Assembly (NCBI GenBank): GCA_964248365.1
Contig: CAXTYC010000038.1
Location: 1-48,436, forward strand
Reading direction: 5' to 3'
Source: an uncultured Chroococcidiopsis sp.
GTDB taxonomy: Bacteria; Cyanobacteriota; Cyanobacteriia; Cyanobacteriales; Chroococcidiopsidaceae
DNA: 48,436 nt
Part shown: piece after piece, positions 18,802 through 22,815 of the stretch
How positions within the stretch are numbered: the stretch's first letter is position 1
Layout: every line of letters begins with the position of its first letter
Position numbers and translations under genes: made by a program
The notes under the pieces: model-generated
Database searches by the model: none
What the model was told of the DNA's origin: nothing
Seen by the model: only the letters and a program-made list of their open reading frames with translations

Positions 18802-19310
18802 CTATAGCACTTTTTGAAACACTAGGGAAGTTTTGATATTGCTATAGCCTATTTTTTTGTAGAAGCGGAAAAATTGGGGTGTGGCTTCGCCTCCCCCAAT
18901 ATTTTCCAAGACAACTATGAGCGTCTTCGCGGACAATATTAGAGCGAAGTAACACACTTGTGCATCCTTGTGTAACTGCCCATTGCTCGGCATATTGCAT
19001 TAAGCGCCTTCCGATTCCACAACGGCGATCGCTTGGGTCTACAATCAATCCCCCGATGAATGCTTGTAAATCTGTCATAAGTGTTGGACAAACATAAATA
19101 TGCACCCAGCCAACTACCTGCTGATCTAAGCTTGGCTACAAAAACTACATGATTTTTATCCTGCTGGATTTGCCCAAGACGCTGTTCTATAGATGCTTGT
19201 GAGGTGGGATAACCTAACTGTTTGCACAGTTGAGCAATCTGCTTATAATCCCCTATCTGTGCTAAGCGAATAATTGTTTGGTTGCTGTTATCGTTGGTTA
19301 CAATTGGCAC
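18802..19310 (-). pseudogene. GNAT acetyltransferase broken by a frameshift and a 49-nt insertion
   Basis: Three frames join into one GNAT: IRLAQIGD...VFVAKL / VVGWVH...RRCGIGRRLM...REDAH / RFYKKIGY...VFQKVL. Confidence 0.85.
18868..18916. mobile_element. 49-nt hairpin mini-element inserted in the GNAT gene
   Basis: Arms GGAAAAATTGGGG and CCCCAATATTTTCC around GGCTTCGCC; removing it restores REDAH-RFYKKIGY. Confidence 0.65.
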
Positions 19311-19464: not shown

Positions 19465-21138
19465 TCAGCTAGATTGATTTTCGTTGACTATTTCGTTTAA
19501 CGAAGCTTCATCAAGGAGATTCGATCTTGCTCCAAGTTTCTTTGATGCATATAGGGACATAATAAACCCAAAATCAGCACATCTCTCAAGATTTTTTTGT
19601 TCTAATATTCCATATAAAAAACCAGCCGCCAGTGCATCACCAGTACCCGTAGTGTCTTCTGGAATAATTGTTTTAGTTTGCACATTAAATTTATGATTGT
19701 CATGACAAAAAAAGCTTGTGCTAGTATCAACACTACTAGCTACATAAATGTGGTTTTGATATACGTTGTTTGATTTATCTGGTGAATAATCTTTAATAAC
19801 AATAATCATAGGGTGTGTTATCTGGCTGTTAATCCTCCACTCAAAGAACAACTCGACTTTTCTGTCTAAAGATAGCTCTGTTTTACCTTTCTCTATTTTT
19901 TCTATTATCTCAGAACGCTCTAATAGTAGATTTAGTTGTTGAGTATACAAAAACATTATGTGTGTCACTGCTAAAATTCCACGCAGTTGATTGAGACCTT
20001 CTGCAACATATATAGCTCCTGGTGTGAAAGATACTATTATGTTGTCACCCCTAATTTGCTCCAAGATACTTAACTGCAACTCCATTTCAGCTTTCCCAGC
20101 AAATGATGTTAAATGAAGAATTTTCGTTTTTTTAACTTGCGCTACCACCTCGTTTATTTTTTGATAATTATTGATTTTAAGTATGTTTGATAAATAGTTA
20201 TTAATACCTGGAGCTACTAAGATTTGCCTTCTCCCAAAAAACCTTTCAACCAATACTAATGTCTTGCCTGTTTTCGTATCAGAATAAACTAGATCATTTT
20301 CAATAATGAGTAGTTTACTATCCACACCAAATTCATTAAAAGACTCTATTATTTTTTTGCCCTCATTATCATCCTTTACACAACCTACTATGGCAGTTAT
20401 TTTATTTAGTTTTGCTAATCCACAAACTGTATTTGCACCAGAACCTCCTACACAAGAAGATTCACTTATAATTACAGACTCATGCTCTGGCGAAATTATA
20501 TCTACTTTTAGAAAATGGTCGTAATTATTTGCACTTATAGTTATGACATCAATTTCTTTGTTTTTTTGCTCTTTTACTATTTCAATGATTTTTTTGAATG
20601 CATCAAGTTGCACCTGCTTGGGTTCAAGAGGAGGTAACTTTACCAGGTTGCCAAGTTCTGGCTTCACAGCCCGAGGTTGATCGGTTAGGTGGCGGTAGAG
20701 ATCTTCGTAGTCGTCTTCAAGTACATAGCGTGCGGCAATACGAAGCGGGTTGGGAATGCAGCTCAATTCTTGAGAGGAAAACACAATAGGAATAAATTTG
20801 GTGTTTCTCGCCCCACCGTCATAAATTATTTGAGTGATGATTGCTCCTTCCCATCTGACACCTAAGCCCCTTCCGGTTTTCGCTCTGTCTCTGAATCGTT
20901 GCTCATATTCTTCAGTACATACCACCAGAACAAAATCAGCCCACTCAATCTGGTCAATTATCCATCTAGACCAGCCTTGAGAGGGAGCTATCTCATACTG
21001 ATCGATATTGCAATCAACTCCCTCAGCGCGTAGGCGATCGCAAAGTTCTAGTACACGAGCTTTGTGTTGGTTTGAGTCCCAGCTATAGCTGATGAAGACC
21101 TTAGGAGAATAAGAATTTTGGTTAGACGTTTGGTTCAT
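19465..21138 (-). CDS. SEFIR/TIR-domain protein fused to a PfkB (ribokinase-family) domain
   Basis: N-terminal KVFISYSWD...IDQYE...GWSRW...ADFVLVVCT...GVRWEG...KFIPIVF; C-terminal GGSGANT and DTTGTGDALAAGFLYG PfkB signatures. Confidence 0.88.
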   Translation of the reverse strand: MNQTSNQNSYSPKVFISYSWDSNQHKARVLELCDRLRAEGVDCNIDQYEIAPSQGWSRWIIDQIEWADFVLVVCTEEYEQRFRDRAKTGRGLGVRWEGAIITQIIYDGGARNTKFIPIVFSSQELSCIPNPLRIAARYVLEDDYEDLYRHLTDQPRAVKPELGNLVKLPPLEPKQVQLDAFKKIIEIVKEQKNKEIDVITISANNYDHFLKVDIISPEHESVIISESSCVGGSGANTVCGLAKLNKITAIVGCVKDDNEGKKIIESFNEFGVDSKLLIIENDLVYSDTKTGKTLVLVERFFGRRQILVAPGINNYLSNILKINNYQKINEVVAQVKKTKILHLTSFAGKAEMELQLSILEQIRGDNIIVSFTPGAIYVAEGLNQLRGILAVTHIMFLYTQQLNLLLERSEIIEKIEKGKTELSLDRKVELFFEWRINSQITHPMIIVIKDYSPDKSNNVYQNHIYVASSVDTSTSFFCHDNHKFNVQTKTIIPEDTTGTGDALAAGFLYGILEQKNLERCADFGFIMSLYASKKLGARSNLLDEASLNEIVNENQSS

Positions 21139-21239
21139 ATCCTATAGCCTCAGTACTTAGCAATTGCGCTGCTTGAAAAGGTTTATCAGATGTTGGAAAA
21201 GCAATTTGAAAATTAACAGCAAAGACACTTGCTATGTTG

Positions 21240-21722
21240 CTATGTAGTTAAAAGAATCACCAGTGTTATTACCAAAATTACTAAATAAGGAACATTAGCC
21301 CAGGATTTTATAGCATTCTTATATAGTTCCAATGCGCGACTTCTATCCAACTGTTCCGGTGTAATAAAGTTTCCCTTCAAACGTTCCACCTGCTCTAGTG
21401 ACTCAGAGCTAAAGTCATACAGCAACTCTGTCAGTCGGCTAAAATTTTTCCGAAAGCGCTGCTCTAGATAGAGATAGTACGCATCTAAGAAACCTAGTAA
21501 AATTAAGGAAATGATTGCTAAAACAAATAAAAAGTGGGTTTTATTAGTAAAGCCGAACCCCATCAATGTAGTCCAAATCGTTATTCCTAGTTGCTTAATT
21601 GTGAGCGAGTTACTAGCCATCCGACTAATTATAGTTTGTAACATTTCGCTCTGCTTTATTAAATAATCTCGATTTTTATTAACAAAGTCATTCTTGTCTG
21701 CCATAGTTTTTTCTGTTGGCAT
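21240..21722 (-). CDS. Small 3-TM membrane protein, candidate effector partner of SEFIR-PfkB
   Basis: QTIISRMASNSLTIK and LDAYYLYLEQRFR motifs; three hydrophobic segments; co-oriented 101 nt upstream of the SEFIR gene. Confidence 0.8.
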   Translation of the reverse strand: MPTEKTMADKNDFVNKNRDYLIKQSEMLQTIISRMASNSLTIKQLGITIWTTLMGFGFTNKTHFLFVLAIISLILLGFLDAYYLYLEQRFRKNFSRLTELLYDFSSESLEQVERLKGNFITPEQLDRSRALELYKNAIKSWANVPYLVILVITLVILLTT

Positions 21723-22267
21723 TAATAGCTAAAAATCAAAAGAAAATTTTTATGTTATTTATTAGCACAGCCTTGAGCTTGAGAACTGAAATTTATCTTA
21801 CTTAAAAAATAAATTCATCAGTAAGTCAAACATAATGAGTGTTTTAGAAGAACGAATTTTTTTTGAGATAAGAATTTAATCAAAGCTGAAAACTGGCTAC
21901 AATTTATACCAACCAGAGCAGGATTCGAGGATTTTGCATATTGGATGCCAGTGTTACTGAAATCTGAAAACACCAGATATTGACCTTCAAAAAAGTAACC
22001 TCTGAGATTTTGCCTAGACAAGCCTAAAGGCATAACTAATTGCACCAGGATAAGTCTTAATACAAGTACAACAAAGCAGTTTTCGGAAAAGTTAGCTATT
22101 TAACTGAAGCTAGTAGGGGTAAAGGTAGCGAAGTTGCATTCAATAGTTCGCAACTTGCAACAGTTTGTTGGTAATTTAGCGTACCTCTTTTTAGTATTTT
22201 GGCGTACCCCTTCAACGAAGGGAGTTTTGTGATCTAATACAGCACTGTGCCTAAACGAATAGAATAA

Positions 22268-22777
22268 ATGCAGTTATTACCAACGCTATTCGAGGCTGTG
22301 AGAACAGCAACAGATTGTCAAAGCACTCTCACCGCCGCACTTGGTCATGTATGTGAACGCGCGGGCTGGGACTATGGGGAAGCTTGGATTCCTAGCAAGG
22401 GCGGCACAATTCTACAACATAGCTCAGCCTTTTACATCAACACCCATAAAAACAAAGACTGTATTTTGAGGGGAGCAATTTTGGCATTGTAGCCATGCGT
22501 TGATATTGACCCTTTGGTATAGGTTTACCTGGGCGAGAAGAGTTATCGCAGCAACCCCAATGGATTTGTGATGTTTCACAGCTGCTGTGAAACTTATTTT
22601 TTGCGCCATTACATCGCCAAAGCTTACGGCGTTAGAACTGGGTTAGGTATTCCGATTCTTGCCAACAATCAGGTGCTAGCCGTTTTAGTCTTTTTTATGT
22701 TATCTGTTCGCTCAGAAGACAAGGAACTAGTCGAACTCGTCACAGCTGCTGTGACATAACTAGCGAAGGCGTTGTAG
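22268..22777 (+). pseudogene. GAF-domain gene remnant with several frameshifts
   Basis: VCERAGWDYGEAWIP / GIGLPGR / GVRTGLGIPILANNQVLAVLVFF fragments lie in different frames. Confidence 0.7.
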
Positions 22778-22815
22778 TGAACCTTTGCCTCTAACCGCTT
22801 AAATCGATGCTATTA

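Follow-up and report, generated by a model that had tools for sequence, protein, structure and literature searches.

What does a SEFIR domain, a member of the TIR fold, do when it is fused to a ribokinase-like PfkB domain and encoded next to a small membrane protein? The question is raised by a pair of genes from an uncultured Chroococcidiopsis sp. (assembly GCA_964248365.1), found on the minus strand of contig CAXTYC010000038.1, of which 48,436 nucleotides were analysed (the window). The upstream gene (21240-21722) codes for a transmembrane (TM) protein of 160 amino acids (aa), a predicted oligomeric effector of the PDC-M50A family, and is followed 101 nt downstream by the gene of a 557-aa SEFIR-PfkB fusion protein (19465-21138). 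The preferred reading, to which a probability of roughly 45% is given, is a two-gene abortive-infection system similar to Thoeris, in which the SEFIR domain would produce a signal acting on a membrane oligomer, and the PfkB domain would be an exchangeable sensing or regulatory module rather than the signal-maker. A signalling core going from the TIR-fold enzyme to the membrane is likely in itself; once this core is granted, it is an even call whether the PfkB domain is its sensor or regulator.

The SEFIR-PfkB protein and its membrane partner

Both genes are intact and co-oriented, as proposed by an earlier interpretation made from the letters alone (here, the sequence-only reading), and the domains that it had recognised in the larger protein are confirmed. 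The SEFIR domain (aa 12-151; 20686-21105) scores higher in Pfam as SEFIR (E 1e-18, 68 bits) than as TIR_2 (E 2e-14, 54.5 bits), matches the PADLOC bSEFIR model (E 8e-54, 182 bits), and aligns with the solved Bacillus SEFIR structure 5y8e (E 1.5e-14). The Glu of its GVRWE motif, Glu97 (20848-20850), coincides with the Glu of 5y8e and is found in 106 of 107 aligned SEFIR domains, in which an Asp is also conserved; by analogy with TIR biochemistry, Glu97 is the putative catalytic residue of a NAD+-cleaving enzyme. The PfkB domain (aa 195-545; 19504-20556) is matched by Pfam with an E of 1e-21. An AlphaFold2 (AF2) model of the fusion protein contains both folds (predicted local distance difference test, pLDDT, 88.6), with low confidence at the linker and at residues 90-98, around Glu97. 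Over its C-terminal 360 residues, the model matches the structures of ribokinases and adenosine kinases with Z scores of 33-35.5 and a root-mean-square deviation of 2.2-2.5 Å over about 300 residues.

The fusion is not a chimera of the assembly, since it recurs in five other 90% clusters (one of them cut at the N terminus). Single contigs from the public sequencing runs X1, X3, and X8 also span the SEFIR-PfkB junction. These runs contained at most 12% of the words, and no single run record spans both genes. The RNA run X8 gave short contigs on both genes, which do not amount to a demonstration of transcription. In runs X1 and X3 there are contigs that diverge from the window at 20610-20611, within the linker, which would be expected if the PfkB module were joined to other N-termini in co-occurring strains.

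The membrane protein was proposed to have three TM helices. Two of them are strongly hydrophobic (around aa 60-85 and 140-160), and the first one (around aa 42-60) is only moderately so. The protein was assigned no Pfam family, but it matches all four PADLOC PDC-M50A models (best E 1.5e-16, aa 21-100, on a model of 134 positions), whose partner gene, PDC-M50B, encodes a ThsB-type TIR. Residues Q29, R34, S39, K43, D80, E87, and R91 are invariant across 27 diverse family members, one of which has a weak SLATT_1 match (E 0.047) that is absent from the window protein. Modeled as a homo-tetramer, the protein scores 0.44 against 0.00 for the best of three controls, narrowly reaching the pass mark. 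In the calibration, made with two copies and only rough for four, this mark was attained by 20 of the 30 solved homo-pairs and by 1 of the 23 monomers. The tetramer runs share at least 97% of their contacts, with a partner pLDDT of at least 70 and the first long helix as the interface. Fold searches with the model returned only generic helical matches (Foldseek best E 0.43), and the best VIA match, an ESCRT-III filament (Z 9.2), is within the range expected of helical bundles, so that no fold is assigned or excluded. Sequence and profile searches of the PDB gave nothing credible, and the nearest clusters in the ESM Atlas are unnamed, with PF24838 (8xMP) at 0.86-0.88 as a lead only.

In a search at E < 1e-55, the close TM subfamily appeared in five genomes out of 400 from the order, and 351 genomes from the family of genome G690 yielded 20 loci; removal of a duplicate of genome G059 leaves 24 other loci. 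The partner within three genes is a SEFIR protein in 14 cases (one partial), a TIR_2 protein in seven, and an NDT-like protein (PF15891) in two. The remaining locus has no partner, and its TM gene carries a stop. The TIR or SEFIR partner is mostly convergent with the TM gene and holds GUN4, STAND/NACHT, ATPase, EAD7, or unnamed domains, or is accompanied by a SLOG gene. None of the 24 loci has a PfkB domain, which is thus interchangeable with GUN4, STAND, or other domains in the same slot. The proposal of the sequence-only reading that PfkB provides a dedicated third function is not sustained, as the four PfkB loci with non-SEFIR partners that were opened also lack the TM gene, and a fixed three-function system including PfkB was rejected on the basis of its absence from the 24 loci. 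As a control, the source genome (G000) and genomes G059, G089, G407, and G476 were found to hold a single SEFIR gene each, always beside the TM gene; in the source genome, this is the SEFIR gene of the fusion. Genome G428 has no SEFIR gene, and the neighbor of its TM gene is an ATPase-TIR.

The SEFIR-PfkB protein itself is also linked to the TM gene in other strains. Its records lie on contigs of 12 distinct sizes, seven of which recur among the 97 sizes of contigs carrying TM-protein records, with about 0.07 expected by chance and 0 of 22 for PfkB-clade proteins with other N-termini; contig-size matching is an indirect measure of linkage, and the TM clusters are only partly listed. In Nostoc sp. 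XA013, the gene of an intact SEFIR-PfkB protein (75% identical) is immediately preceded, on its own strand, by a broken TM gene. Downstream of it are an intact distant TM gene, a TIR-like gene, ThsB, and a SEFIR-STAND ATPase, and this copy therefore sits in a defence island. The TM gene and the SEFIR-PfkB gene form a conserved unit. The anticipated co-occurrence thus holds for the TM gene and, for defence islands, in XA013 only of these two strains, the source locus lying outside one.

The wider TM family extends over 149 plasmid records across bacteria and haloarchaea. An annotated TIR gene lies at most two genes away in all ten plasmid loci opened, which were picked from the top matches for taxonomic spread, and restriction-modification (RM) and other defence-type genes are found near the plasmid relatives. 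Among 14 weaker cyanobacterial matches, several are without a TIR neighbor (for example L055, L056, L061, and the most distant group, L063-L069). Twelve homologs are longer and include eight SLOG-TM fusions (P0378, P0379, P0381-P0384, P0386, and P0387) and one TM-ThsB fusion (P0385). SLOG is the signal-binding domain of the type I effector ThsA, according to the accessible text of bioRxiv 10.64898/2025.12.03.692087, and such fusions may represent Thoeris effectors of a type III-like kind that act through a pore. Near the TM gene of loci L059, L060, L138, and L140, an NDT-like (PF15891) gene replaces or accompanies the TIR gene. The source genome itself holds a second, distant TM-family gene on contig C46 (L057:7459-11224), convergent with a ThsB-type TIR gene and beside an HTH-NACHT (helix-turn-helix) gene, a pair that is by its sequence a canonical PDC-M50-like one.

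Could the fusion protein act alone instead, as a NAD+ depleter of the bSEFIR type with PfkB as its sensor? The TM protein would then be triggered separately, or be co-clustered and answer another TIR enzyme such as the ThsB on C46. The high-scoring PADLOC match fits this alternative, bSEFIR being described, in the accessible part of its report, as depleting NAD+ alone, and the same is true of the second TM-ThsB pair in the genome and of XA013, where SEFIR-PfkB was kept and the cognate TM gene broken. Many other SEFIR fusions are also without a known TM neighbor. However, five genomes carry a single SEFIR gene, which neighbors the TM gene, 23 of the 24 TM loci have a TIR- or NDT-fold neighbor, and fusions of the TM protein to SLOG and to ThsB exist. 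With these points on the other side, independent action of the two proteins is unlikely.

The fused PfkB clade

A profile of the 25 closest PfkB proteins was searched against 1.84 billion representatives, with 150 matches listed. The resulting tree (FastTree) includes the 154 sequences with a full domain out of 170 pooled, after dropping 16 fragments, and is loosely rooted on five PfkB paralogs of the source genome that did not cluster together. Being drawn from the best matches of one profile search, the sample is not a census. The fusion belongs to a clade of 92 proteins (support 0.96) separate from 62 standalone kinases of around 300-400 aa. N-terminal extensions of at least 30 residues are found in 85 of the 92 and in none of the 62.

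The two groups differ mainly on the ATP and magnesium side of the active site. In the ribokinase family, the NXXE motif binds Mg and the GXGD motif holds the catalytic Asp (accessible text of PMC5931981). NxxE is present in 47 of the 62 standalone proteins and in none of the 92 clade members, only five of which keep a Glu at that position (61 of 62 standalone). It is replaced by YxxQ in 69 clade members, including the protein studied here (YTQQ, Y398-Q401; 19936-19947). The TLG loop, which binds ATP in kinases of this family, is replaced in the PfkB domain by a hairpin insertion led by a Lys; a TxG loop is found in 1 of 92 clade members against 50 of 62 standalone proteins, and a Lys takes the position of the Thr in 82 of the 92. 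The catalytic base, Asp501 of GTGD in this protein (19636-19638), is conserved in 88 clade members and in all 62 standalone ones. On the substrate side, the N/D position, E220, GGSGAN, and R304 are invariant across the 25 closest proteins.

These motifs bear directly on the proposal that PfkB phosphorylates the product of the SEFIR domain or a related ribosyl compound, either completing a phosphorylated messenger or removing the messenger in place of a NUDIX hydrolase. The retained substrate side is consistent with such a kinase, and so is the GxGD Asp, which comes with a small second residue, the pattern of the ATP-using type. An invariant Lys instead of the Thr of TLG might even substitute for Mg. 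The best NCBIfam matches, far below the cut-offs, are archaeal ribose-1-phosphate kinases (E 3e-20), and TIR-fold partners occur in 22 of the 92 clade members (SEFIR 6, TIR_2 2, DUF4062 14), on several branches of the tree. NUDIX genes, too, follow the expected pattern in part: one immediately precedes the TM gene in 16 of the 24 other loci and in neither of the two SEFIR-PfkB loci read, but it is also missing from eight of the 24 loci that lack PfkB. The complete loss of NxxE weakens the kinase proposal. Furthermore, no TIR-fold partner was detected in 70 of the 92 clade members, which excludes a TIR product as the general substrate, and TM proteins of 60-67% identity that share the invariant pocket residues sit beside partners without PfkB. 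A kinase acting on the SEFIR product is thus improbable. The other option raised by the sequence-only reading, that PfkB senses a nucleoside or a sugar, fits these observations better and is still a proposal. The archaeal ribose-1-phosphate kinase matches and the context of the standalone relatives, which include a PfkB-PurD fusion and a gene in L005 behind formyltransferase-like and HAD-like open reading frames (ORFs), make a ribosyl ligand the natural guess.

The NUDIX gene of the PfkB-less loci forms an operon with the TM gene (L051, L054, L131-L137, L141-L146, and L148) and is a candidate third component for degrading or processing the signal; a combination of Thoeris with NUDIX in cyanobacteria was not found in the literature searched. 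In L089 and L092, from actinobacterial plasmids, the TM and TIR genes are separated by a HIT-domain gene, which would put a second type of hydrolase in the slot filled by NUDIX in cyanobacteria. A protein of 810-860 aa with IFT52_GIFT/DUF4350 matches also recurs upstream of the TIR or SEFIR partner in several of the NUDIX-TM loci, recognised by Pfam in L131:7507-9954, L132:1916-4495, and a fragment in L136, and by the start of its sequence in L135, L137, L141, and L143.

The N-terminal partners of the clade are highly diverse. Pfam identifies SEFIR in six, CHAT in five, and the HTH-looking PF26355 in six. Among the 71 proteins scanned are also found DUF4062 (15, of which 11 are above the cut-off and 14 in the tree), TIR_2 (two), XRE-type HTH (nine), and SARP-type domains (three), and, as C-terminal additions, one Mrr_cat and one PhoD. 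By eye, cyclase-like, two-helix membrane, and short N-termini were also recognised. Such N-terminal modules usually stand in front of STAND NTPases. The distribution of TIR-fold partners over the tree, whose backbone is weak, suggests repeated fusion to PfkB.

The four non-SEFIR loci of the clade that were read (L003 and L102-L104) consist of solo genes outside evident defence islands. In one of them, a CHAT-PfkB gene (L103:8596-10365) lies among nif-like genes, recognised by eye, and two serine recombinases, and is perhaps the cargo of a nif-interrupting element. The PfkB domain gave no match in plasmids at E 1e-15, the protein P0206 matching one plasmid through its DUF4062 half only, and viral contigs gave two short generic PfkB matches. 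Of the matches listed in a metagenome scan (26 loci), only L003 among those inspected belongs to the clade, and a sample of 400 genomes of the phylum had no match at E 1e-40 with a single-protein query. A modular fused PfkB clade was not found in the literature searched, from which subscription papers were mostly absent.

Likeness to described systems

The pair is best read as working like a Thoeris TIR enzyme with its membrane effector, while sharing one gene family with PDC-M50. This agrees with the signal enzyme and membrane effector envisaged by the sequence-only reading. Its suggestion of a previously undescribed system is not supported as it stands, because the TM protein belongs to PDC-M50A, which has a ThsB-type TIR partner, and the combination of a TIR with a three-TM effector is described as type V Thoeris. 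Each protein falls within a named family (PDC-M50A and bSEFIR), and the pair as such is not assigned to any named type.

Two features common to every type of Thoeris are found here. One is a TIR-fold gene beside a separate effector gene as a conserved unit, and the other is the catalytic Glu of the TIR-fold domain, which is E97 by alignment, its three-dimensional position falling on low-confidence residues of the model. The Thoeris survey of bioRxiv 10.64898/2025.12.03.692087 lists, in its accessible text, 29 putative types from a TIR screen that included PF08357. Among them are type V, composed of ThsB and ThsF (DUF2270, with three TM helices) and using 3'cADPR as signal, and type VII, whose effector ThsH is a SLATT protein responding to cyclic ADP-ribose (cADPR). 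SEFIR, PfkB, and kinase do not occur in the main text of this survey, whose supplements may list pairs of SEFIR and TM genes. As in type V, a TIR-fold protein is paired with a small membrane protein, here with two strong and one moderate TM segments, that may self-assemble with charged pockets (invariant R34, K43, and R91), and the wider TM family pairs with a type-I-like ThsB, the TIR class described beside ThsF in the accessible text. It differs from type V in having a SEFIR instead of a ThsB, a fused PfkB, and no significant DUF2270 match in the TM protein. Two members of the TM subfamily do have weak DUF2270 matches (E 0.11-0.12, profile positions 26-124), and neither 251 cyanobacterial genomes nor five plasmid records yielded DUF2270. 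Judged by these sequence features, the pair possibly belongs to type V.

With PDC-M50 it has in common a TM protein matching M50A and an adjacent TIR-fold gene. However, the 557-aa partner is a SEFIR-PfkB protein without an M50B match at E ≤ 1, and the TM protein belongs to a cyanobacterial subfamily only 18-26% identical to the ThsB-linked members. The M50B partner is present for the distant TM pair of the XA013 locus (L001). PDC-M50 is not named in the main text of bioRxiv 10.1101/2024.01.29.577857, and no test of it was found in the literature searched.

As in bSEFIR (accessible text of bioRxiv 10.1101/2022.05.11.491447; 5y8e), the SEFIR domain is N-terminal, scores above TIR, and keeps the conserved Asp and Glu. 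The C-terminal domain is a different one, and the conserved second gene means that this is not a single-gene system. With the ribokinase family (E. coli RbsK 1rkd, adenosine kinases, and the archaeal ribose-1-phosphate kinases NF041134 and NF053626) the PfkB domain shares the fold, GGxGAN, and GxGD, and departs in YxxQ for NxxE, in the Lys-led hairpin, and in being nearly always fused behind another domain. The cyanobacterial fusions of TIR, caspase, or kinase domains to GUN4 (PMC7159879) and effector proteins with variable sensors such as pSlfn (PMC13056530) follow a similar plan in the text available: the effector or signal domain stays constant, and the C-terminal module, which is proposed or shown to act as a sensor, is exchanged. 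Neither main text mentions PfkB, nor do the accessible portions of Kaur 2021, PMC9503650, and a 2026 ParA preprint.

Mechanism, setting, and meaning

The layout of a constant TIR-fold domain and TM protein with a variable accessory domain is that of Thoeris, and it puts the accessory domain where a sensor or regulator would be expected. GUN4, which occupies the same place in similar fusions, was proposed as a sensor of small molecules or of photosynthesis status (accessible text of PMC7159879). In the proposed mechanism, the SEFIR-PfkB protein would detect infection or a related stress through its PfkB domain, which retains the pocket for ribosyl substrates next to a remodelled ATP and Mg side, and most likely binds a ribose- or nucleoside-type metabolite or a phage component. 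The ligand-bound PfkB would cluster or unlock the SEFIR domains, which, as in related enzymes, would convert NAD+ via Glu97 into a messenger derived from ADP-ribose. This messenger would enter the charged pocket of the oligomeric TM protein, whose self-association is supported by the tetramer model, and the activated oligomer would breach the membrane and halt the infection.

Several observations count against this mechanism. The one bacterial SEFIR that has been characterised acts as a single-gene system and depletes NAD+ (accessible text of bioRxiv 10.1101/2022.05.11.491447), and no signal-making SEFIR was found in the literature searched. In a tree of 164 columns, the SEFIR domains linked to TM genes do not group into a single clade, so that no co-evolution with the TM gene is shown, and the 19 Nostocaceae loci that were counted are kin rather than independent cases, for which no statistic is claimed. 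Although a pure binding module would have no need of the catalytic Asp, 88 of the 92 clade members keep it, and three of the four non-SEFIR PfkB loci are found among ordinary genes, the fourth (L003) being beside a transposase-like ORF. In the window, none of the 18 other ORFs scanned belongs to a defence family in Pfam; all are housekeeping or unrelated genes. The TM copy of XA013 is broken although its SEFIR-PfkB is intact, with the intact distant TM gene just downstream. Finally, the pairwise ratio of nonsynonymous to synonymous substitution rates (dN/dS) against XA013 is 0.5-0.6 for both the SEFIR and PfkB halves, and 0.3-1.3 for PfkB against three other loci (few pairs, of different depths), which may reflect relaxed constraint or decay of the SEFIR-PfkB gene. 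For the TM gene it is 0.11-0.12 in two pairs and saturated in a third one.

The immediate surroundings of the pair are cyanobacterial by gene content. Both neighbors are broken, as was noted from the sequence: the GNAT gene on one side (18842-19310, minus strand) is frameshifted and split over two frames, and the remnant on the other side (22262-22795, plus strand) is interrupted by stops. The latter is GAF-like only by the label of the sequence-only reading, and shares 31% identity with a portion of a 1258-aa ORF belonging to this genome; both neighbors lie outside the system. The AT-rich patch described there applies to the TM gene (guanine-plus-cytosine, GC, content 0.356) and the PfkB half (0.327, within the bottom 0.4% of genome windows), and not to the SEFIR half (0.459, with 0.434 for the genome). 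The contrast between both halves fits a recent join of the domains. Counts of promoters and terminators equal the shuffled expectation, and there was no sign of repeats that would mark a mobile element. In the source genome, the pair is a solo insertion outside any defence island.

This setting raises the alternative that the pair is not directed against phages at all, being instead a cyanobacterial switch for stress or cell fate, in which a metabolite (through PfkB) or a tetrapyrrole (through GUN4) controls a NAD+-derived signal and a membrane channel, or simply a decaying passenger. The insertion among housekeeping genes, between two broken ones, is compatible with both versions, together with the role proposed for GUN4 in reporting photosynthesis status and with the high dN/dS of the SEFIR-PfkB gene. 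Against it stands the distribution of the pair, which is accessory, patchy, and mobile-looking: DNA matching either gene is absent from 30 related genomes, six of them of the same genus, and the PfkB clade is held by only four of the 351 genomes of the family of G690. The XA013 copy also lies alongside ThsB, a TIR-like gene, and a SEFIR-STAND gene, plasmid TM relatives are near RM and other defence-type genes, and PDC-M50 was called by its embedding in defence systems (accessible text of bioRxiv 10.1101/2024.01.29.577857). A role outside phage defence is accordingly given little weight and is unlikely.

A bolder extension of the Thoeris-like mechanism is doubtful, though worth stating. The YxxQ-type PfkB clade might be a portable immune sensor, or an unusual kinase, derived from an archaeal-type riboside kinase and repeatedly attached to TIR, SEFIR, DUF4062, caspase-like CHAT, DNA-binding XRE/SARP, cyclase-like, membrane, and restriction-nuclease modules, where it would read a ribosyl or nucleoside by-product of infection. 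At this locus, it would gate the first signal-producing SEFIR, feeding a TM family so far tied only to ThsB-type TIRs.

The core of a TIR-fold enzyme and a membrane protein is on its own a modest addition, and the fused, motif-altered PfkB clade is the more original part. If the Thoeris-like mechanism is true, signalling of this kind extends to SEFIR domains, known in the literature searched only as stand-alone NAD+ depleters. It would also offer a handle on an open question of Thoeris, namely what activates the TIR enzymes and which further signals exist. Should PfkB be an active kinase, a phosphorylated messenger of the ADP-ribose type would be new chemistry. The natural exchange of PfkB, GUN4, and STAND on one chassis of SEFIR and TM protein provides ready-made chimeras. 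As a possible metabolite sensor of bacterial immune systems, the fused PfkB clade is a compact and testable candidate.

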